Positions 4,608-61,272 of a stretch of 64,000 nucleotides of DNA are shown piece after piece. The notes beneath the pieces were generated by a model. That model was not told the DNA's origin and ran no database searches. It saw only the letters and a list, made by a program, of their open reading frames with translations. Location of the stretch: positions 1,312,001-1,376,000 of the forward strand of contig CBDEUK010000002.1 in NCBI GenBank assembly GCA_965243205.1, written 5' to 3'. The stretch comes from Gammaproteobacteria bacterium. GTDB taxonomy: Bacteria; Pseudomonadota; Gammaproteobacteria; Eutrophobiales; Eutrophobiaceae. A program made the position numbers and the translations under genes. The stretch's first letter is position 1. Each line of letters starts with the position of its first letter.

Positions 4608-5528
4608 TTAAGCCGCCTTATCTTTTTTACTCAAATTTTCCAAAAGACTTGAAGCGTATGCAAAAGCATCTGGAAAGTCGATGATTGCGACCTTTTCTGA
4701 TTTTTGGATCTGTTCAAATAAACCATATTGAGTTTTGTATTTAACATCCCCAATAGCTAGAGAACCAATCGACCAAAATGGTCTACCGTTTGCGTCATCT
4801 TTTACCCCATTATCTTTAGCATCGACATGAGCAATACCGCTCGGAGGAACTGCGTTTGTATCTGCAGCGACTAATAATTTTTCTGCGTGTTGCATAACAT
4901 CAACATCTAAAATTCTTATACCTGCTTTGGCAGCACAAAGAATGACTTCGCTGTCTCTAACAATTTCAGTTTTTTCTTCAAAGGTCTGTCCTGAAACCCA
5001 TTCAATTTCTACGTTATAACGTTCCGCAAAACGTAATGCTGTTTTCGAATCATCGTCAGCTGTTAATTGACATAGTTTTGTTTTAGCTCCATGTTGAGCA
5101 GTTAAAATAGCGATACTAAGCCCTACTGGACCGGTACCAAAGATTGAAACTGTCTTACCATTTAAATCACTATTTGAGTGTTCTTTTAATGCTTTCTCAA
5201 CTAAAGCCACAACGCTGGCTGAAGTGGTATAGGCGCCATTTGGATCGGCAAACACACCTACTTGAAATGGTCCAACCATCGCTTTACTTGCTAAATCCAA
5301 CATATCTTTAGCCTGATGTACGTCTCTACCACCTAGAAATACACCAGTGTCATTAAATCGACCTGGTGGGCGACAAAAAATAGAATCTTGAACTAATGGC
5401 ACAACATCATTTACTTTCACCCCAGTGATTGGTAAAACTTGGTCAAAACCTGCATCGGCAGCAAGTGTGACGTCAAAAGGGCTAATATTCTCACCAGGTG
5501 TTAAAATGTATAAGATTTTTTGGCTCAT
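4608..5528 (-). CDS. mtdB: NAD(P)-dependent methylene-tetrahydromethanopterin dehydrogenase, MtdB-like (divergent)
   Basis: Mtd family motifs: SPFDV..A.DAG, VQDSIF.R, TGVFLGG, FADP.G..TT, GTGPVG, D.NAVPP.GI, IG.LAIG.VKY..Q..LF, DF.DAF. The N-terminus and C-terminal helix fit MtdB better than MtdA. Confidence 0.85.
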   Translation of the reverse strand: MSQKILYILTPGENISPFDVTLAADAGFDQVLPITGVKVNDVVPLVQDSIFCRPPGRFNDTGVFLGGRDVHQAKDMLDLASKAMVGPFQVGVFADPNGAYTTSASVVALVEKALKEHSNSDLNGKTVSIFGTGPVGLSIAILTAQHGAKTKLCQLTADDDSKTALRFAERYNVEIEWVSGQTFEEKTEIVRDSEVILCAAKAGIRILDVDVMQHAEKLLVAADTNAVPPSGIAHVDAKDNGVKDDANGRPFWSIGSLAIGDVKYKTQYGLFEQIQKSEKVAIIDFPDAFAYASSLLENLSKKDKAA

Positions 5529-46741: not shown

Positions 46742-48034
46742 ATGCAAACTCGCGCTACTGCTGCCCAAATTATTAATGACGTAGTAGTAAACCGTCATTC
46801 ATTAACTAAGCTACTTGAGCGTATTATTGCTAAAGAAATCGATTCAAGAAATCGAGCAATGCTGCAAGATTTATGCTTTGGCGTATTACGTTGGTATCAA
46901 TTACTCGAACGCTACCTTGAACAATTAATTGAAAAACCTATCAAACCTAAAGATGCAGAATTAAAACAATTATTATTAATTGGTTTGTATCAAATCATAT
47001 ATCAACAGACTCCAAACCACGCTGCGGTTTCCGAATGTGTTAATGCTTGTGATGATTTAAAAAAAACCTGGGCTAAGAAATTAGTCAATGCCGTATTAAG
47101 AAGATTTATTCGTGAACAAGAATCAATAGAAAATAAACTTCATTCGCAAGATTCATTTTCACACCCTGCTTGGCTAATTAAACAATTAAAATCAGATTGG
47201 CCTGAGCAGTTTCAAAACATCTTAAACGGCAATCAATTACAAGCTCCTCTAACTCTACGAATCAATCAAACTAAGATTTCTCGAGATGATTATCTAAATA
47301 CATTAGAACATGCATCTATTGAAGCAACAGAAACAAAACATTCATTGTATGGCATTCATTTAAATAAAAGCATAGATATAAAAAAATTACCTGGTTATGA
47401 AGAAGGTTTATTCAGTGTCCAAGATGAAGCGGCACAATTTGCTGCTATCTTATTAGACATAGAAAAAGACCAACGAGTGTTGGATGCCTGTGCTGCGCCT
47501 GGAGGCAAAACAACACATTGTCTTGAGTCTCAAGTAGAGCTAACAGAATTAATCGCATTAGATAACAATCCGCAACGAATCAAACGTGTTGAAGAAAACC
47601 TAAATCGCCTAAGCTTAGAAGCTACTACAATAGTTGGTGATGCCTCAAAGCCAAATATTTGGTGGGATAATAAATTATTTGATCGAATTTTATTAGATGT
47701 TCCATGTACCGCTTCAGGGATCATTCGTCGTCATCCAGATATTAAGTTTTTACGTCAAGAACAGGATATCGCTAAGGTCATATCTGAACAAACAACTCTC
47801 CTAGAAAATATTTGGCCCCTATTAAAACCGAACGGAAAATTACTCTATTCGACCTGTTCTGTATTTAAAGCTGAAAATGATCAGCAAATTCAATTATTTC
47901 TTAAACAACATGAAGATGCGCAATTGAAGCCTATCGATGTCACATGGGGAAATAAAACGCAATGTGGGGTTCAAGTATTTCCAGGACAAGATAATATGGA
48001 CGGATTCTATTATTCCTGCATAATCAAAACATGA
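46742..48034 (+). CDS. rsmB: 16S rRNA m5C967 methyltransferase RsmB
   Basis: NusB-like N-terminus, VQDEAAQ, LDACAAPGGKT, ILLDVPCTASGIIRRHPDI, YSTCS. Confidence 0.97.
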   Translation: MQTRATAAQIINDVVVNRHSLTKLLERIIAKEIDSRNRAMLQDLCFGVLRWYQLLERYLEQLIEKPIKPKDAELKQLLLIGLYQIIYQQTPNHAAVSECVNACDDLKKTWAKKLVNAVLRRFIREQESIENKLHSQDSFSHPAWLIKQLKSDWPEQFQNILNGNQLQAPLTLRINQTKISRDDYLNTLEHASIEATETKHSLYGIHLNKSIDIKKLPGYEEGLFSVQDEAAQFAAILLDIEKDQRVLDACAAPGGKTTHCLESQVELTELIALDNNPQRIKRVEENLNRLSLEATTIVGDASKPNIWWDNKLFDRILLDVPCTASGIIRRHPDIKFLRQEQDIAKVISEQTTLLENIWPLLKPNGKLLYSTCSVFKAENDQQIQLFLKQHEDAQLKPIDVTWGNKTQCGVQVFPGQDNMDGFYYSCIIKT

Positions 48035-48600
48035 CGTTAAAACCCAGATCATATCTATACTTATTATTGTTGATATCAACAGGGTTATGCATACCAGACA
48101 ATCTTTTGGCACAAGGAATTAGTATTAAAGAGGGTTCTATTAGCAAAGACGATACGAGCTATTACTTCAACGCAAAAGTTGATTGTGATCTATCTGAAGA
48201 ATCTATAGAAGCTTTACATCATGGGGTAGCACTGCAAATCCTAGTAGATATTAAAACCCAAATAAAACGTAAATTTCTCTGGGATAAAACTATAAATCAT
48301 TCCACGATTGCCTACAAAATTGAATTTCATCCGTTAACTGAACGCTATTTATTAACAGAATTGAATCGTTATAAACGACAAGATTTCCAATACTTATCCA
48401 AAGCATTGGAAGCGCTTGGTAAAATTAATGATTGGCCCTTAATTGCATTAGGTGAATTAAATTCTGAGAATGATTATATCGTATTAGTGAAAGCAAAACT
48501 TGATATCGAAGCATTACCTGCACCATTAAGACCCATGGCTTTTATTTCAAAAAACTGGCGAATGAGTAGTGATTGGCAACAATGGGAGTTAAGCCAATGA
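48031..48600 (+). CDS. Exported DUF4390-like protein
   Basis: Signal peptide, AL.HGV.L, YKIEFHPLT.RY, LD.EALPAPLRP.A...NW...SDW; conserved position between rsmB and the NtrY-like kinase. Confidence 0.8.
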   Translation: MTLKPRSYLYLLLLISTGLCIPDNLLAQGISIKEGSISKDDTSYYFNAKVDCDLSEESIEALHHGVALQILVDIKTQIKRKFLWDKTINHSTIAYKIEFHPLTERYLLTELNRYKRQDFQYLSKALEALGKINDWPLIALGELNSENDYIVLVKAKLDIEALPAPLRPMAFISKNWRMSSDWQQWELSQ

Positions 48601-50759
48601 AAAAAAGTGGTCGTCTCATTTTAATCATAGGTTTATTGCTATTTAGTTTTATGCTGTTCTCATTGTTTATGATGAGCAATGCACTGGAAGATTCCCAACG
48701 TTTTGGTAATTTGTTTTTCGTATTATTAATACTGAATACACTCTGCGTTATTACTCTAATCATTTTAATTATTCTTAACTTCAAACGATTAAGACGTGAT
48801 TTAAAACATAATGTAGCTGGTTCATTTTTAACTTTAAGAATGGTTATTATGTTCTCTTTGTTATCAATCACACCGGTTTTGATCGTTTATTATTTTTCCT
48901 TAGACTTTCTATTGCGCGGTATTGATAACTGGTTTGATTTGCGTGTTGAACAAGCGCTCGATGATTCACTTGAGTTAAGTAAAATTTCTCTAGATGGTCG
49001 CATGCAAGAATTATTAAAACAAACAGATCAAGTTGCTGATGAACTCAGTGAAATTAGCGATGCTGCTACTCCATTTGAAATTGATGAACTAAGAGCTCGT
49101 ATTGGCGCAGAAGAACTCACGGTATTGACACGACAAGGTACTATCATCGCTTCAAGTAGTGGTGATAGTTTAAACTTGGTACCAGATAGCCCAGATGAAT
49201 CTGTACTTTTACAATTACAACAAGGTAAGAGTTATGCTGGGCTTGATCCAGTAGGTGAGTCAGGTTTATTTATTCGAATTGCAGTGAATATTCCTGAATT
49301 GAATGTAGGAACCATACCGCGTATTGTGCAAACATTATTTCCAGTAGAAGAACGCATCACTAACCTGGCAAATAATGTGCAAACTGCCTTTGTTGACTAT
49401 CAAGAACTTTCGTATTTACGCGAACAATTAAAACTAAGCTTCGCCATGATTCTTACATTGGCATTACTATTTAGTATATTTAGTGTGTTATGGGCTGCTT
49501 TTTATTCTGCTAAAAAGATTGCTCAGCCAGTTCGTGATTTAGCAAAAGGTACTCGTGCAGTTGCCGAAGGTAATTATGACATGCAACTACCTGTCACCAG
49601 TCGCGATGAACTAGGTTTTTTAGTTGCTTCGTTTAATGACATGACCAATCAAATTGCAAGAGCACGTAACCAAGCAGATGTCAGTAAAAAAGAAGCTGAA
49701 GCTCAACGTTCAAGACTCGAAACCATATTGGAAAAATTGACTTCAGGCGTATTAGTTTTTAATAACGAATTAAAATTAATCATAGCCAATAATAGTTCAC
49801 AACAAATACTAGGGATCGATTTACAAAATGAAATCGGTGAAAACCCTAAAAAACTCTCCGATAAATATCCAAGTTTAGAAAGTCTTTTTGGAAGTATTAG
49901 TCATCATGCCAATAAGTCAGAATCTGATTGGCGAGAACAAATTGAGTTATTTAGTAGTACTGGCCGGCAAGATTTAATCTGTAGTGGCACACTCTTATCT
50001 GTTGTGCCTTCAGTAAATACTGGCTTAGTCGTTGTGTTCGATGACATCACAGCATTAATACAAGGTCAAAGAGATGCTGCATGGAGCGAAATGGCAAGGC
50101 GTCTAGCACATGAAATTAAAAATCCTTTGACTCCAATACAACTTGCAGCTGAACGATTACGACATAAATATATGGATAGCATGAACGACATTGAATCCGA
50201 AATGTTAGAACGATTAACCAACACCATCATTCAACAAGTAGATACGATGAAAAGCATGGTTAATAGTTTTTCAGAATACGCATACACACCGACTATTGAA
50301 TTGACTACTTTTCAACTCAACAAACTAATACAGGAAGTAGCAACGCTGTATCGAAATAATGAAAAGAATATTCAAATCGAATTAGAGCTTGCTGACGATT
50401 TGCCTGAAATCAATATTGATTCAAAAAGAATACGCCAAGTACTTAATAACCTAGTAAAAAATGGACTTGAAGCAAGCAATGAAAATGGACATTTATTCAT
50501 ATCCTCTAAACTAATTATTGAAGGTTCAAACCAATTTATTGAACTTATCATTCGTGATCATGGCCGTGGTATTTCCGAAAATATCCAACAGCAAATTTTC
50601 GAACCCTATGTAACAACCAAACAAAAAGGCACAGGTTTAGGCCTTGCAATTGTGAAAAAAATAATTGATGAGCATTCTGGCATTGTTAAGATAGATAACA
50701 ATGAAGATTCTACTGGTGCCTATGTCATGATACGCTTACCCATTCGTAATCATTCATAA
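48597..50759 (+). CDS. NtrY-like (PlrS/EsaS-type) membrane sensor histidine kinase with HAMP and PAS domains
   Basis: GIDNWF, HAMP (DELGFLVASFN.MT), H-box AWSEMARRLAHEIKNPLTPIQL.AERL, FEPYVTTK.KGTGLGLAIV. ATG at 48597 overlaps the upstream stop (ATGA) and has a GGGAG SD. Confidence 0.9.
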   Translation: MKKSGRLILIIGLLLFSFMLFSLFMMSNALEDSQRFGNLFFVLLILNTLCVITLIILIILNFKRLRRDLKHNVAGSFLTLRMVIMFSLLSITPVLIVYYFSLDFLLRGIDNWFDLRVEQALDDSLELSKISLDGRMQELLKQTDQVADELSEISDAATPFEIDELRARIGAEELTVLTRQGTIIASSSGDSLNLVPDSPDESVLLQLQQGKSYAGLDPVGESGLFIRIAVNIPELNVGTIPRIVQTLFPVEERITNLANNVQTAFVDYQELSYLREQLKLSFAMILTLALLFSIFSVLWAAFYSAKKIAQPVRDLAKGTRAVAEGNYDMQLPVTSRDELGFLVASFNDMTNQIARARNQADVSKKEAEAQRSRLETILEKLTSGVLVFNNELKLIIANNSSQQILGIDLQNEIGENPKKLSDKYPSLESLFGSISHHANKSESDWREQIELFSSTGRQDLICSGTLLSVVPSVNTGLVVVFDDITALIQGQRDAAWSEMARRLAHEIKNPLTPIQLAAERLRHKYMDSMNDIESEMLERLTNTIIQQVDTMKSMVNSFSEYAYTPTIELTTFQLNKLIQEVATLYRNNEKNIQIELELADDLPEINIDSKRIRQVLNNLVKNGLEASNENGHLFISSKLIIEGSNQFIELIIRDHGRGISENIQQQIFEPYVTTKQKGTGLGLAIVKKIIDEHSGIVKIDNNEDSTGAYVMIRLPIRNHS

Positions 50760-50793
50760 ATTCAACAAGCACAGTCTTAAAGGTTAATACGAT

Positions 50794-52149
50794 ATGATGT
50801 CAGCAAATGTTTTGGTGGTAGATGACGAACCTGACATTTGTAGTCTGGTAAAAGAAATTCTGCAAGATGAAGGATTAAATGTACAAATTGCTCACAATGG
50901 AGAAGAAGCAAAGTCATTAAAAGAACAAATCGAACCTGATCTAATATTGCTTGATATCTGGATGCCGGATATAGATGGCATCAGCGTTCTTAAAGAATGG
51001 AAAAATAATAATAAGCTATCCGCACCAGTAGTAATGATGTCTGGTCATGGCACGGTTGAAACCGCTGTTGAAGCAACTAGGCTAGGTGCCTATGACTTTA
51101 TTGAAAAGCCATTATCACTTGCAAAACTTCTACTGACAGTTAAACACGCCCTAGAACATTCCACACTACACAAAGAAAATAAACGTCTAACAAAAATTTC
51201 GCAATTTCAAACAGCTCCGATTGGCAAAAGCCAAATGATGCAAGACCTGCGTAATCAAATCCAAAAAATTGCTAACCATAATACCCCTGTATTAATTACT
51301 GGTGAAAACGGAACAGATAAAGAACTTTATGCGAGATATATACATAATCAAAGTGAACGAGCCAATCAACCATTATTAGCCATAGGCTTCTCAGCTTTAA
51401 CCACAGAAAATGCAGATAATGAATTATTTGGCATACAAAATGAGCACAGAATTGAATCCGGTTTATTTGAAAAAGCCAATGGTGGTAGCTTATATTTAAA
51501 AGATATCACCGATATGTCCGCAAACATTCAAGGAAAAATCCAAGCTGCTTTAGAAACAAAACAAATAACCAGAATTGGTAGCTCGGAGCCCATATCGATT
51601 GATGTACGTATTATTGCAGCAACCCGTGAAAGTCTTGAACCCAAAGTACAATCCGGAAACTTCCGAGATGATTTATTCTATCAATTATCTGTAGTACCGA
51701 TTGAAATACCACCATTACGTGATCATGCTGAAGATATTCCTGAGTTACTCGAATATTATGCAAACGTTTTTGTGGAACGTGAAAACTTAAGCTATCGAAA
51801 GTTTTCAGTCGCCGCTCAAAACCGCCTTCGAGGCTATCACTGGCCCGGCAATGTAAGAGAGTTACGAAATCTTGTACAACGATTATTGATTTTGGGCTCC
51901 AATGAAATTATCGAACTCTCCGAACTGGATTCCAACCTAGGAAAAAATATTGAAAAGACTGCTGAGCTGGATGGTGTCAACTTAGATTTACCGATTCGCG
52001 AAGCCAGAGAACAATTTGAACGTGAGTATTTTGAATATCAACTACAAAAGAATGGAGGAAGTGTGAGCAAAGTTGCTCAAATTGCAGGCATGGAACGAAC
52101 CCATTTATATAGAAAATTAAAATCACTGGATATCGATATCAAAAACTAA
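50794..52149 (+). CDS. NtrX-like response regulator (REC, degenerate AAA+, Fis HTH)
   Basis: LVVDDEPDI, LLDIWMPD.DG, MMSGHGTVETAVEATRLGA.DFIEKP, WPGNVREL.N, REAREQFEREY, GMERTHLYRKLK; no GAFTGA. Confidence 0.9.
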   Translation: MMSANVLVVDDEPDICSLVKEILQDEGLNVQIAHNGEEAKSLKEQIEPDLILLDIWMPDIDGISVLKEWKNNNKLSAPVVMMSGHGTVETAVEATRLGAYDFIEKPLSLAKLLLTVKHALEHSTLHKENKRLTKISQFQTAPIGKSQMMQDLRNQIQKIANHNTPVLITGENGTDKELYARYIHNQSERANQPLLAIGFSALTTENADNELFGIQNEHRIESGLFEKANGGSLYLKDITDMSANIQGKIQAALETKQITRIGSSEPISIDVRIIAATRESLEPKVQSGNFRDDLFYQLSVVPIEIPPLRDHAEDIPELLEYYANVFVERENLSYRKFSVAAQNRLRGYHWPGNVRELRNLVQRLLILGSNEIIELSELDSNLGKNIEKTAELDGVNLDLPIREAREQFEREYFEYQLQKNGGSVSKVAQIAGMERTHLYRKLKSLDIDIKN

Positions 52150-57171: not shown

Positions 57172-57789
57172 TTAACGAGCTGTTTTATTCAAGGCGACTG
57201 CTTGTGTACGATTATTAACCCCTAATGCTTGTAATATTGCACGCACATGTAATTTAACAGTGCCCTCTGTAAGCTCTAACTTTCTTGCAATCATTTTATT
57301 TGTGTCGCCTTCACAAATAAGCTGAAATACTTCTTGTTGACGGTTTGTAAGACACTCAGTAAGTTGTGAATGAGAAGGTATTTTATTAAGTATAAATTTT
57401 TTTTCGTTATTAGAATTTTCATTATTTGACAGCGTTGTAATTACCGCTCTTTCTAAGCCTGTATTATCTAGTGATTTAGTAAGGAAACTAGTTGCTCCTT
57501 TATTAATAGCAAGCCGACAATCCTCAGCTGATTCAGATCCTGTAATAATTATTATCGGAACTGTTGGATACGTTTGACGCAATTTTTCTATATGATCATA
57601 TGAGTTTCCTCCAGGCATATTTAAATCTAAAAATAAACAATCTGGAAAAATATATTTTGTATTCAACAAACTAAATAACTCTACAAAACTATCTGCTTCA
57701 ATTACATCAACAGATTGATAAAGCCTTTGCATGAGATTTTTTAATGCTTCTCTAAATAAAGGGTGATCATCTGCAATAAAAATATTCAT
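57172..57789 (-). CDS. NarL/LuxR-family response regulator resembling ErbR(AgmR)/ErdR/FlhR-type regulators
   Basis: IADDHPLFREA, FLDLNMPG, GA..FLTKS, LuxR HTH LT.RQ.EV...G.TNK.IA..L.LTEGTVK.HV.AIL..LGV.NRTQA. ATG of MNIFIADD chosen; the track ORF starts at 57813. Confidence 0.88.
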   Translation of the reverse strand: MNIFIADDHPLFREALKNLMQRLYQSVDVIEADSFVELFSLLNTKYIFPDCLFLDLNMPGGNSYDHIEKLRQTYPTVPIIIITGSESAEDCRLAINKGATSFLTKSLDNTGLERAVITTLSNNENSNNEKKFILNKIPSHSQLTECLTNRQQEVFQLICEGDTNKMIARKLELTEGTVKLHVRAILQALGVNNRTQAVALNKTAR

Positions 57790-57894
57790 ATTAAACTGCC
57801 CTAATGGTTTCATGCCTAAATATAGTTATCCCCAAAAAAGCAAAATGCCGTGAGTACTATTTTATTAATATTCACGACATTATATGAATTTATT

Positions 57895-58407
57895 TTATTT
57901 TGAAAAATGTTTTTCTAAACTTTGCAGCCCTGCATCATAAATTCCTGAAACTATCTCCATAGCTTTTTTATCATCAACTCCATCTGAATTAAAATTAGAT
58001 GTCCATGAAACAATTGTTTTACCATTACCGTTTTGATTCACATCTATGGTTGCAACATAATCACTAACAGGCAAAGGTGACTCAGTAATTGTATATGTAT
58101 AAGTCATATTTTCATTACTGTGAGCGACTAATTCTTCAGTAATTTTAGCTCCATCACCTAGTGTTAAAATACGAATAACGCCAGGTTTATTTTCATTCTT
58201 ATTGACTTTGCTACCTACTACAACGGGATGCCATACATCCAAATGATTGTAGTCGCCAATCATTTTCCAAACGGTTTCGGATGAGGCATTTATTTCATAC
58301 TGCTTTTCCACTTTGAGGTTACCCATAGCAGTCACTTTAAAACTACAAACAAAACAAGTCATCACTATAAAAATAATATTTAGATTATTAAAAGTTTTTT
58401 TTTGCAT
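57895..58407 (-). CDS. Exported SRPBCC/START-fold protein, MxaD-like
   Basis: Signal-peptide-like N-terminus (MQKK...VTA), I.AS.E.VW..IGD...L..WHP.V, G..R.LTL.DG..I.EEL, Y.Y.I.ESPLPV..Y.ATI, G.Y.AGL..L; GGAG SD before the ATG at 58407. Confidence 0.8.
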   Translation of the reverse strand: MQKKTFNNLNIIFIVMTCFVCSFKVTAMGNLKVEKQYEINASSETVWKMIGDYNHLDVWHPVVVGSKVNKNENKPGVIRILTLGDGAKITEELVAHSNENMTYTYTITESPLPVSDYVATIDVNQNGNGKTIVSWTSNFNSDGVDDKKAMEIVSGIYDAGLQSLEKHFSK

Positions 58408-58541
58408 TGATTTTCTCCAGTTTTTTACTTCTCTAAGTATCAACTATTAAAAAATAATTCCCATATCTCTCTCGATATATATCTAAAGACATATAAAATA
58501 TAAAAGCGTTTACCTAAGAAATAGCTCATACTATAGAAACA

Positions 58542-60260
58542 ATGTTTATGAACATGCAAAAAAATATTTTTTTAATATCACTTGTAATTTTATCTGGTGT
58601 GTTAATTAGCATAATCAGTAGCTATTTTTTATTACGCTATTCCAGAGAGCAAAATACCATTGAAATAGAACGACATTTTGAGATTCGTGCAGAACAATTA
58701 CAACTCAATATTAATAACACATTACAAACACTAGCATCACTTTCAGGCTTATTTTATTCCAGTAATCATGTTACTAAATCTGAATTTGATAAGTTTGTAT
58801 CTATTTCCACACAAAAACAAAATAGTATTATTTCACTAGCTTGGGTTCAATTAGTAAAAGATAAAGAACGTTCAGTATTTGAAAAGAAGATTTCTGGGCG
58901 CGGAACGCGTGGCAAATATATTTACGACATTAATAGTCATGGATTGGAATCCATTGCATTTAGACAAGCTCAATATTATCCAATCCAATATCTTTATTCA
59001 GAAATCAATAGTGAATTATTTCCAGGGCTTAATTTGGGCACTCAGTATAAAACAAAAAAACGATTCCAAAATGCAGCTAGATCTAAACAAACATTAATAA
59101 CTGAAAAAATATATTTGCGTAAAGGAACATTACTATTACCAATAGTACGAGCTTTTAAGCCCGTTTATAACGACGAAACAAAAAGTTTAGGCTCTTTAAA
59201 GGGTTTTGTATTTGGGCAAATTGATATTAAAGAACTTATGGAGTCTGTATTCGGTAACGAGGATAAACTTTCTATATTATTATTTGATATTGATTCAGAC
59301 TTGGATAAACAAAAACTCTATGCAAACCAAACAGCAAATTTATATCACTCTTCAATTAATAACATTAATGACATAGGTGAAGTCAGTTCAACTTATTGGT
59401 CTCGTTATTACGACATAGGTAATAGACGTTGGCTGGTTACCTTTATAGAAAATAATAATAACACGACATTTTGGTTACCTTTTTTAGGTTTGTTTTTTGG
59501 TTTATTTTTCACTTTTTTCCTTACCATCTATATGATAATTGCTTGGAGCAAAACCCAACAAGTCGATGAATTAAAAAAAGAGAACAAAGCAAAAACACGT
59601 TTTTTACAGGCAATTGGTCACGACCTTAGACAGCCCTTAAATGTAATTGGCTTACACATCACGAATTATGAACAAAAGAATATTGATTTAAGCTCAGAAA
59701 ATAAAACACTCTTAAATAACATACGCCAGTCAATTTCTGGCCTGCATAGCATGTTTACATCTTTGTTGGATATTTCTAGGCTTGAAGAAGGCTTGATAGC
59801 TCCCGAATTTAATCGGGTTAGATTACTACCATTATTTACAGATTTAAGTGATGAATTTGATTTATTAGCGAATCAAAAACATATTGAGATAAGAATGAAA
59901 TGCCAAGATATAGGCATTCACACTGATGAAATATTATTAGAGCGTATGTTAAGAAATCTATTAAATAACGCCATCAAATATACTGATAAGGGGAAAATAT
60001 TTTTTGGCGCCAGGCAAACTAATGAAATAGTAAAAATATATATTATGGATACTGGTAGAGGTATTGCAGATTCTGAAATAGAAACTGTATTGGAAACCTA
60101 TCAAAGAGGAAGTGAAACTGGAGATATTGATGGTCTCGGTTTAGGGCTTGCAATCGTTAAACAAACTGTCGAATTACTTAACATGGAACTTGAAATACAT
60201 TCAAAACAAAATAGAGGAACAACTGTTATAATTAAAATAAAAGAAAATAATAATTTATAA
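58542..60260 (+). CDS. CHASE-domain membrane sensor histidine kinase (no receiver domain)
   Basis: TM1; CHASE-type motifs (VT..EF..FV, LAWV, ER..FE, YYPI.Y, GLNL, PVY, GFV, GNRRW); TM2; H-box KTRFL..IGHDLRQPL; N-box LRNLLNNAIKYT; DTG.GI; GLGLGLAIV. Exact start uncertain. Confidence 0.85.
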   Translation: MFMNMQKNIFLISLVILSGVLISIISSYFLLRYSREQNTIEIERHFEIRAEQLQLNINNTLQTLASLSGLFYSSNHVTKSEFDKFVSISTQKQNSIISLAWVQLVKDKERSVFEKKISGRGTRGKYIYDINSHGLESIAFRQAQYYPIQYLYSEINSELFPGLNLGTQYKTKKRFQNAARSKQTLITEKIYLRKGTLLLPIVRAFKPVYNDETKSLGSLKGFVFGQIDIKELMESVFGNEDKLSILLFDIDSDLDKQKLYANQTANLYHSSINNINDIGEVSSTYWSRYYDIGNRRWLVTFIENNNNTTFWLPFLGLFFGLFFTFFLTIYMIIAWSKTQQVDELKKENKAKTRFLQAIGHDLRQPLNVIGLHITNYEQKNIDLSSENKTLLNNIRQSISGLHSMFTSLLDISRLEEGLIAPEFNRVRLLPLFTDLSDEFDLLANQKHIEIRMKCQDIGIHTDEILLERMLRNLLNNAIKYTDKGKIFFGARQTNEIVKIYIMDTGRGIADSEIETVLETYQRGSETGDIDGLGLGLAIVKQTVELLNMELEIHSKQNRGTTVIIKIKENNNL

Positions 60261-60267
60261 AACGTAT

Positions 60268-61272
60268 TTACATCTCTGCCTTAGGTTCTCTCTGTAATAA
60301 ATTCCTTACAGCTTGTTCAGGTTTACATTCTCCGTTAATGACTTGAAGAACTTGTTCACTGATAGGCATTTCTACATTGTATTGTTTGGCTAATAAACCA
60401 ATTTCTTGTGCCGTGTTAATACCTTCAACCGCTTCACCAATGTCATTTTGAGCTTGCTTTATGGTTTGGCCTTTAGCTAATGCCAAGCCAAATCTCCTAT
60501 TACGAGATAAATCATCCGTACAGGTTAAAACCAGATCGCCTAAACCAGCCAAACCTAAAAAAGTTTCAGCTTGAGCACCCATAGCAGTTGCAAGCCTTAA
60601 GATTTCTGCAAGACCTCGAGTAATTAACGCTGCACGTGTATTTGCTCCAAATCCTAAACCATCAGCTATGCCTGCGGCAATTGCCATCACATTTTTTACC
60701 GCACCGCCAATTTCTACACCTACCACATCGCTATTAGTATATGTACGAAAATTATCGTTGCGAAAATAACAAGCAAAATCTTCTGCGGCGACTTTATTTT
60801 CAGAAGCAATGGAAACAGCGGTGGGTAAACCTTTTGCGACTTCTTTAGCAAATGAAGGTCCTGATAAAATTAATGTTGTTGCATCATCACCAAAGACTTC
60901 ATTGACAACTTCATGTCCAAGTTTATGCGTTTCAGGTTCTAAGCCTTTTGAAGTTAAACAAATACGTAAATGTCTTTGATAGTTTTTATATAAGTTTTGT
61001 AAAACTGTTCGTGAAGCCGAACAAGGTACAGCCATAATAATATCATCAACTTCAAAAGCTATGTCAGTAAAGGTATTGACAGGGTGTAAATTCTCAGGGA
61101 ATTCTATGCCGGGTAAAAAACGTTCATTACTGTTTTTTTCTTGTAGTTCTAAGATATGTTTTGAATCTCTTCCCCACAAAAAAGTAGTATGTTGATTACT
61201 AGCCAATACTAGCGCTAAAGCAGTGCCCCAAGAACCAGCACCGATGACTAAAATGTTTTTTGCGTCAGTCAT
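60268..61272 (-). CDS. gpsA: NAD(P)H-dependent glycerol-3-phosphate dehydrogenase
   Basis: GAGSWGTALA, SKGLE, LSGPSFA.EV, GGAVKNV.AIAAG, GLGDLVLTCT...SRNRRFG. Confidence 0.98.
   Translation of the reverse strand: MTDAKNILVIGAGSWGTALALVLASNQHTTFLWGRDSKHILELQEKNSNERFLPGIEFPENLHPVNTFTDIAFEVDDIIMAVPCSASRTVLQNLYKNYQRHLRICLTSKGLEPETHKLGHEVVNEVFGDDATTLILSGPSFAKEVAKGLPTAVSIASENKVAAEDFACYFRNDNFRTYTNSDVVGVEIGGAVKNVMAIAAGIADGLGFGANTRAALITRGLAEILRLATAMGAQAETFLGLAGLGDLVLTCTDDLSRNRRFGLALAKGQTIKQAQNDIGEAVEGINTAQEIGLLAKQYNVEMPISEQVLQVINGECKPEQAVRNLLQREPKAEM

Follow-up and report, generated by a model that had tools for sequence, protein, structure and literature searches.

A 64,000-nucleotide (nt) stretch of a gammaproteobacterial genome (hereafter, the window; contig CBDEUK010000002.1, positions 1,312,001 to 1,376,000) carries, at positions 57172-60260, a divergent trio of genes for a sensor histidine kinase with a CHASE domain, a NarL-type response regulator and a small exported protein of the SRPBCC/MxaD family. 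The locus raises the question of what the exported protein does there: it could be the product that the two-component system controls, a part of its sensor, an accessory of alcohol oxidation, or a neighbor by chance. The trio is conserved in two gene orders, and operator-like and terminator-like sequences are conserved with it. We consider it probable that the trio is a self-contained mobile module with the exported SRPBCC protein as its dedicated regulated output. The features of the locus are listed below by their positions in the window.

57172-57813, minus strand: open reading frame (ORF) of the NarL-type regulator, 213 amino acids (aa), with Response_reg and GerE domains
57834-57843 (U-tract) and 57844-57881 (hairpin), minus strand: terminator-like element directly 3' of the SRPBCC stop codon
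57879-57906, minus strand: promoter-like site TTTTCA-16-TATAAT, 10/12 consensus match, candidate for a separate regulator transcript
57895-58443 as listed, corrected gene 57895-58407, minus strand: ORF of the exported SRPBCC protein, 170 aa, with a Polyketide_cyc2 domain
58464-58479 (TATCTCTCTCGATATA) and 58478-58493 (TATATCTAAAGACATA), no strand assigned: paired, overlapping 7-2-7 inverted repeats, putative operator
58542-60260, plus strand: sensor histidine kinase, 572 aa, transmembrane (TM)-CHASE-TM-HisKA-HATPase_c, without a receiver domain

Genes and domains of the trio

An ORF check found the three genes of the divergent unit that a preliminary description had reported from this sequence, and the spacer between the kinase and SRPBCC genes, given there as about 130 nt, is 134 nt (58408-58541) when the SRPBCC gene begins at 58407. 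This ATG is most likely the true start, as it gives a protein of 170 aa like the database copy P0006, and the regulator probably starts at Met9 (57789), matching the starts of its homologues. The domain calls made earlier (CHASE, SRPBCC and NarL-type) hold as well, with Pfam matches all over the curated cut-offs.

In the kinase, two hydrophobic stretches read from the sequence (residues 9-31, TM1, and 309-334, TM2) flank the CHASE domain (PF03924; 70.8 bits against a cut-off of 25), which spans residues 76-260 (58767-59321) and model positions 2-189 of 189. This match settles the identity of the periplasmic domain, a point on which the preliminary description had staked its proposal. HisKA (40.8 bits, residues 350-417) and HATPase_c (77.3 bits, residues 462-568) also score over their curated Pfam cut-offs, and the H-box reads GHDLRQPL, with His360 at 59619-59621. 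A CHASE match over the Pfam cut-off was present in 15/15 relatives scanned (11/11 and 4/4, plus L068 and L094). The sensor is about 25% identical or less to generic CHASE domains, and AHK4 was the only solved structure matched by the sensor profile (3t4j, E = 9.7e-4). An exhaustive HMMER search returned 2245 CHASE proteins at E ≤ 1e-3 but 6 representative clusters at E ≤ 1e-30, so that the CHASE subfamily of the sensor is small and distinct; its top representatives share the architecture of the window kinase, some with an added receiver domain. A word-based search of 5.8 billion proteins found just four other close relatives of the sensor region. The source genome has another CHASE match outside the window (G000:C2:1180641-1180901), which is partial (47.9 bits) and belongs to an open frame of 740 aa.

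The regulator is of the NarL/FixJ type, with Response_reg (76.5 bits) and GerE (62.5 bits) both over the Pfam cut-off. Its probable phospho-acceptor, by motif position, is Asp63 in LFLDLNMPG, and its recognition helix is TVKLHVRAIL. The closest paralogous regulator within the source genome is 29% identical. The kinase and regulator had previously been likened to ErcS and ErdR, and these models are indeed the best NCBIfam matches of the two proteins, although the scores lie so far under the cut-offs that they indicate likeness and not membership. With the two NahK/ErcS family models (NF041832 and NF041831), the kinase scored 195.4 bits against a cut-off of 400, for the C-terminal model, and 138.6 against 1500, and it also has no C-terminal receiver. 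ErdR (NF041830) ranked first of 101 families for the regulator, at 124 bits against a cut-off of 390; NarL came second at 112 bits against a cut-off of 250, so the regulator is not a NarL orthologue.

The SRPBCC protein matched Polyketide_cyc2 (PF10604) at 94.3 bits (cut-off 27.4, E = 1e-26). Its leader, judged by eye, covers about residues 1-27 (58327-58407; MQKK...FKVTA, followed by MG) and leaves a mature part of about 143 aa; at 170 aa, it agrees with MxaD as an exported SRPBCC protein of roughly 17 kDa. An N-terminal leader is common to 17/17 aligned homologues, and solved homologues align from residue 37 onward only. The source records of homologues at 48-65% identity call them 'MxaD family' or 'SRPBCC family', and many of those at 48-57% identity come from Methylophaga and related marine bacteria; no MxaD model in NCBIfam matched the protein. 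Among solved structures, a single-sequence search found 3f08 (E = 1.4e-21) and 3cnw (E = 2e-20). The family profile matched both at E = 1e-33 and extended to the PYL abscisic acid receptors (E about 5e-4) and to the Bet v 1-fold enzymes hydroxynitrile lyase and lachrymatory-factor synthase. The Bet v 1-fold enzyme, PYL and AHK4 matches are distant sequence links that carry no evidence about the ligand.

In the SRPBCC alignment (170-aa numbering), the polar residues His60, Arg79, Glu91, Tyr103 and Tyr105 are invariant, as are WHP and SPLP motifs. The interior of the SRPBCC fold is usually hydrophobic, and in Bet v 1-fold enzymes the active site is lined by tyrosines together with an Arg-Glu pair. 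A polar-headed ligand, or even catalysis, is thus conceivable for the family. Tandem duplicates of the SRPBCC gene occur at L081:3929-5065 (two copies after the kinase) and L110:3562-4399 (two copies, no kinase). Lipid-related genes recur beside SRPBCC genes, in the flanks of both trios and trio-less homologues (L051:3260-6515, L047:553-1716, L048:8745-9371, L049:5658-6851 and window 60268-61272). They encode a CDP-alcohol phosphatidyltransferase, a lysophosphatidylglycerol (LPG)-synthase TM protein, a glycosyltransferase 21, a phospholipase D (PLD)-type enzyme, a GDSL lipase, a fatty-acid desaturase and gpsA; the recurrence may be chance or a hint of a lipid-like ligand.

Recurrence and mobility of the trio

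In the source genome the trio sits between trmL and gpsA, with a GC content of about 0.30; the genes on its left have about 0.36-0.38 and those on its right 0.36-0.44. In a genome of the same genus (G001, 89% complete), the trmL-gpsA slot holds a gene for a 557-aa repeat protein (L062:8620-10293), and no close SRPBCC homologue was found in that genome (best E = 9e-5). Given the lower GC than the neighboring genes and the other gene in the same-genus slot, the trio is accessory in the source genome. The slot seems to be a variable site, and, being filled in G001, it did not provide a clean empty site by synteny. In the 557-aa protein, repeats of the G-x-Y/F-x-G type are numerous in the N-terminal half, and the C-terminal half is distinct. 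Elsewhere in the window (46742-52149), rsmB and genes for a DUF4390 protein, a HAMP histidine kinase and a sigma-54 regulator stand in series, an order that fits the four-gene operon type of DUF4390, rRNA methyltransferase, response regulator and histidine kinase in PMC5192318.

Whether the three genes belong together was judged from their neighborhoods in other genomes. The sensor alignment found three loci in a scan of one genome per prokaryote species, all with the SRPBCC and regulator genes in the layout of the window (GC of 0.38, 0.70 and 0.63). Four genomes of a 400-genome sample from the same class (G000, G046, G316 and G136) scored over 200 bits and all four had the trio, whereas the SRPBCC gene was present in the fetched flank of 0/26 of the next-best CHASE loci (167 bits or less). 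When the SRPBCC protein was instead searched in 60 relatives' genomes, the kinase and regulator accompanied it at 1 of 29 fetched loci besides the window's own.

A metagenome scan was performed with the SRPBCC alignment and the closer subfamily pattern [FY]N[HG]L[DY][VR]WHP. The CHASE kinase adjoins the SRPBCC gene in 34 of the 49 loci found, many of which are related, with L094/L095 and L096/L097 probably duplicates. Five of these 34 have the order of the window, in which the kinase gene is divergent from the SRPBCC and regulator genes. The other 29 (19 complete, 10 cut by the contig end) have a second order, in which the regulator gene is divergent from a gene for a hybrid kinase (CHASE-HisKA-HATPase-receiver, about 735 aa) that is followed by the SRPBCC gene; the receiver domain of these kinases is also present in P0126, P0130, P0132 and P0134. 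Among the 15 kinase-less loci, nine contigs were too short to judge and six were real negatives, with an SRPBCC identity of 45% or less in five of the six. One of these six (L086:2-3050) has a 54%-identical SRPBCC gene directly after genes for a HAMP histidine kinase and a sigma-54 regulator and lacks the 7-2-7 site; exported SRPBCC genes seem to have been recruited by different two-component systems. The SRPBCC tree separated a low-GC group in the first order (9 rows; support 99/99) and placed the high-GC trio proteins in a polytomy with the rest, a topology compatible with one clade of trio-linked proteins or with several. The sensor alignment (A2) found no relative in the metagenome scan.

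The Methylibium plasmid pT29B carries the trio beside integrase genes. A tblastn search of a plasmid collection with the sensor domain gave no match at E = 1e-6 even though this plasmid has the trio, because the sensor is too diverged for a single-sequence search. The kinase of pT29B (L113:4549-6806) is annotated as two overlapping coding sequences, a 'CHASE domain-containing protein' and a 'hybrid sensor histidine kinase/response regulator', and is either frameshift-split or truly two-part. No flanking gene is conserved, and the neighbors vary between trio loci.

The trio could in principle be three unrelated genes that are merely side by side, as two-component genes and SRPBCC genes are both common. 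The trio recurs between unrelated flanks and in either order, at GC contents of 30% to 71% and also on a plasmid, which refutes this, and we give chance a practically negligible probability. The preliminary description had expected its proposal to fail if the three genes never co-occurred elsewhere; the neighborhood searches show a conserved unit instead, and the trio can be regarded as horizontally mobile.

Operator-like repeats and the regulated gene

Evidence on what the regulator may control came from the DNA between the genes. When the window was compared with L051, a 58-65%-identical relative, the spacers had diverged except for a block with 7-2-7 inverted repeats; the window sites are centered 64 and 78 nt upstream of the SRPBCC ATG. 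For every SRPBCC gene, we then examined the preceding 160 nt and took the best 7-2-7 palindrome there, free of any pattern. This unbiased search returned perfect palindromes (TAATCCT-AA-AGGATTA, TATTCCT-AA-AGGAATA, TATCTCT-TA-AGAGATA and TAGTCCG-AT-CGGACTA) centered 64-91 nt before the SRPBCC ATG in both gene orders, and shuffled sequences equalled the perfect sites in at most 4.5% of trials per locus. The pattern TANNYCN-NN-NGRNNTA was present in 34 of the 37 kinase-linked loci with enough upstream sequence (shuffle mean 0.44, maximum 3), statistics that overstate the case as the pattern was written after the sites had been seen. It was present in 0/6 assessable kinase-less loci, and also in four short contigs with the kinase side missing. 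Two sites often overlap by their terminal TA, as they do in the window.

The position of the site follows the SRPBCC gene. In the second order it lies between the kinase stop and the SRPBCC start, and it remains directly before the SRPBCC gene where other genes interrupt the kinase and SRPBCC genes; the second-order spacers between regulator and kinase have no shared palindrome. The site also co-varies with the helix-turn-helix of the regulator. The recognition helix TVKLHVRAIL is nearly invariant among the loci, and base 3 of the half-site changes with the residue preceding the helix: A accompanies His, G accompanies Ser and T accompanies Gly. The rule also holds in L081, an out-of-clade case among closest relatives that carry Ser and G. 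From this conserved, co-varying site we infer that the SRPBCC gene is under the control of the system's own regulator.

At the other end of the gene, the hairpin 3' of the SRPBCC gene has a predicted RNA folding energy of -19.8 kcal/mol (z = -3.3), and 0/200 shuffles were as stable. A hairpin with a U-tract is found at the same place in L051, L078 and L119; in L047 the GC hairpin after the SRPBCC gene is not above shuffles. The best promoter consensus match of the region is just upstream of the regulator gene, in a region with 14 such sites in total compared with 18.6 in shuffles. The conserved operator-like site in front of the SRPBCC gene and the terminator-like hairpin behind it suggest that the gene is a separately regulated unit and that, in both orders, the kinase and regulator are expressed on their own.

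A genome-wide scan with the window operator gave five sites at one mismatch or fewer, of which the window site was the only intergenic one. With 70 matches in 299 kb of loci, the general pattern occurs too often for a regulon to be defined from it. The genome-wide result fits a one-target circuit and cannot prove it.

These patterns suggest the following mechanism. The CHASE kinase would sense a small molecule in the periplasm and phosphorylate the NarL-type regulator, its presumed cognate partner, which would then bind the paired 7-2-7 repeats just upstream of the SRPBCC promoter and activate the SRPBCC gene. In the periplasm, the SRPBCC protein would most likely bind or handle a small hydrophobic or heteroaromatic compound, either the one that the kinase senses or a relative of it, and it may act back on the kinase in the manner of CpxP and ZraP. 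The sequences show the gene content, the recurrence of the trio in two orders and the conserved operator-like and terminator-like elements, whereas the binding of the regulator to the repeats, its pairing with the kinase, the activation of the gene and everything about the ligand are inferred here.

Several points, besides the late definition of the pattern and the relatedness of the metagenome loci, count against the reading of the SRPBCC protein as a dedicated output. The pattern is absent from three kinase-linked loci (L047, L053 and L113); L113, the Methylibium plasmid, has a near-site, whereas in L047 and L053, the two loci of high GC, the recognition helix differs, no site is recognizable and the other inverted repeats present share no motif. 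In G010 and G011, close SRPBCC homologues (49-52% identity) lack a kinase or regulator for about 7-8 kb to both sides. The genome-wide scan found no second target, although weak sites are indistinguishable from background. Four sequencing runs contain this stretch of DNA, none of them recorded as RNA. A regulated target may also be a co-sensor, since the two roles are compatible.

The SRPBCC protein could be imagined as a co-sensor that captures a hydrophobic ligand and either hands it over to the CHASE domain or docks there itself, like LuxP, TorT or ChvE, with the output genes elsewhere. The strict linkage of the SRPBCC gene with this CHASE subfamily, its position directly downstream of the kinase gene in the second order and the distant relationship of its profile to the PYR/PYL receptors, which dock on a signaling partner once ligand-bound, can be read in favor of such a role but are no positive evidence that the protein captures ligand for the sensor. 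The operator before the SRPBCC gene itself and the terminator after it, however, are what is expected of a target, a mobile module without any output gene would be harder to explain, and no other operator site was found in the genome. SRPBCC homologues also stand beside other kinases (MoxY-type in L050; HAMP with a sigma-54 regulator in L086), which argues against a CHASE-specific docking surface. A complex prediction for the CHASE domain with the mature SRPBCC protein (score 0.00, mark 0.32) weighs neither for nor against binding. Ligand capture for the CHASE sensor, the role put forward in the preliminary description, thus gives way to that of a regulated output, and we consider the co-sensor unlikely.

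A related idea, to which we assign a still lower probability, is that the SRPBCC protein is both output and ligand buffer or co-receptor, so that relatives of two plant-hormone receptor folds (CHASE and START/Bet v 1) would detect one periplasmic heteroaromatic or hydrophobic compound. CHASE occurs in the cytokinin receptor AHK4, and the START/Bet v 1 fold in the PYR/PYL receptors and in cytokinin-binding PR-10 proteins. The compound would be, for example, a cytokinin-like purine from algae, free pyrroloquinoline quinone (PQQ) or a metal-chelating cofactor tied to quinoprotein dehydrogenases. If true, this would also reveal what MxaD-family proteins bind.

Quinoprotein dehydrogenases and comparison with known systems

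A specific physiological version of the dedicated-output reading, possible in our view though doubtful, is that the SRPBCC protein is an MxaD-like accessory that aids electron transfer from a PQQ dehydrogenase to cytochrome c, with the CHASE system tuning its level to a cue related to alcohols, aldehydes or lanthanides. The periplasmic protein MxaD promotes the interaction between methanol dehydrogenase and cytochrome cL, and lanthanide-dependent growth requires a homologue of MxaD (PMC7391723 and PMC2577659, as far as their available text goes). Homologues at about 50% identity carry the MxaD family name, as described above, and the best family matches of the kinase and regulator are regulators of ethanol oxidation. 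The source genome has three PQQ-dependent alcohol dehydrogenases (PQQ-ADHs) over the TIGR03075 cut-off, together with the mtdB-like gene that had been noticed in the window and that is indeed present (4608-5528, minus strand; Mpt_N, E = 2e-30). At greater distance, SRPBCC homologues are found within a XoxF5 cluster and beside fhc (formaldehyde-oxidation) genes.

Within the source genome, a 41-42%-identical SRPBCC paralogue lies in a ped-like PQQ-ADH cluster (the layout being judged against the available text of PMC12997753), where it follows a MoxY-type kinase and a LuxR-type regulator and stands beside a SoxYZ-like carrier. This cluster (L050; G000:C2:98000-118000, outside the window) encodes a PQQ-ADH of 653 aa (TIGR03075, 553 bits), a periplasmic binding protein, a YVTN propeller, a cytochrome c, ABC transporters, three LuxR-type regulators, a LapD/MoxY-type kinase, the SRPBCC paralogue and the SoxYZ-like protein. 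A 605-aa ankyrin-repeat protein is encoded directly after the PQQ-ADH, an unusual arrangement. The wider SRPBCC family thus appears to be tied to quinoprotein dehydrogenases.

The trio itself offers less. No PQQ-ADH, cytochrome c or pqq gene adjoins any trio inspected, and the SRPBCC gene of the window lies in no mxa/xox or PQQ-dehydrogenase cluster; it is the paralogue that has the ped-like context instead. The presence of a PQQ-ADH does not discriminate, as two trio genomes (G000 and G061) have such genes, a third (G046) has one under the cut-off (441 against 480 bits), a fourth (G062) has none, and the trio-less relatives G001 and G011 also have them. No operator-like site was found before the PQQ-ADH genes, and one near-match in the cluster falls inside a coding region. 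The lack of an NCBIfam MxaD match for the SRPBCC protein also counts against this role. The earlier proposal that the system tunes PQQ-dependent alcohol or methanol oxidation thus has contextual support from the wider family, with its members in XoxF and ped-like clusters, and none from the trios inspected, which have no PQQ dehydrogenase beside them and of which the genome G062 has none at all.

The trio may be of use beyond its own function, as it offers a handle on two poorly understood protein families. To our knowledge, how MxaD-family proteins work has been an unsettled matter since the 1990s, and ligands are known for very few CHASE domains of bacteria. Here, one MxaD-like protein is tied to one CHASE sensor by a simple, apparently single-target circuit with a recognizable operator. 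A reporter on the SRPBCC promoter would make the search for the CHASE ligand a plate assay, and the purified SRPBCC protein could yield its own ligand. Once its signal is known, the compact, portable circuit (three genes, found on a plasmid and from 30% to 71% GC) would also be a candidate part for biosensors.

Dedicated periplasmic targets or accessory proteins are already known from other two-component systems; the pairing of this CHASE subfamily with an MxaD-like SRPBCC protein, and its operator, are new to the open-access literature that we searched, in which no paper on either was found. A CHASE2 three-gene operon of Burkholderia was considered as a precedent and set aside as a different system.

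The operator-like sites resemble those of NarL and NarP, whose 7-2-7 sites are inverted TACYYMT heptamers 2 bp apart. The half-sites found here (TAATCCT, TATCTCT and TAGTCCG) have the same 7-2-7 arrangement and fit this heptamer at 6/7 positions; they differ from it at base 3, which is A, G or T and not C, and the regulator is not a NarL orthologue. ErdR/CrbR likewise depends on an inverted repeat, an imperfect one at -52 to -36, which precedes the promoter directly, as is proposed for the trio (PMC5715377, in the part of the text available).

The sensors can be compared with AHK4 of Arabidopsis and PcrK, the CHASE receptor of Xanthomonas (PMC7072313, available text), in which CHASE also lies between two TM helices and is fused to a histidine kinase. 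ErcS and NahK (PedS1) are hybrid kinases with a receiver, like the second-order kinase of the trio, but are described as being without CHASE, and CrbS has a transporter-like input (PMC12997753, to the extent of its available text). MxaD of Methylorubrum extorquens and its homologue META1p1771 are, like the SRPBCC protein, small, exported and of the SRPBCC/Bet v 1 fold, a comparison made by family names and not by sequence; unlike them, the gene of the window lies outside an mxa/xox cluster and is tied to a CHASE two-component system.

In overall design, the trio is closest to CpxP with CpxAR and ZraP with ZraSR, in which the gene for a small periplasmic protein lies beside, or divergent from, a two-component system of which it is the main induced product. 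The folds, sensors and signals of those systems are unrelated to those of the trio, in which an SRPBCC protein would take the corresponding place under a CHASE kinase.

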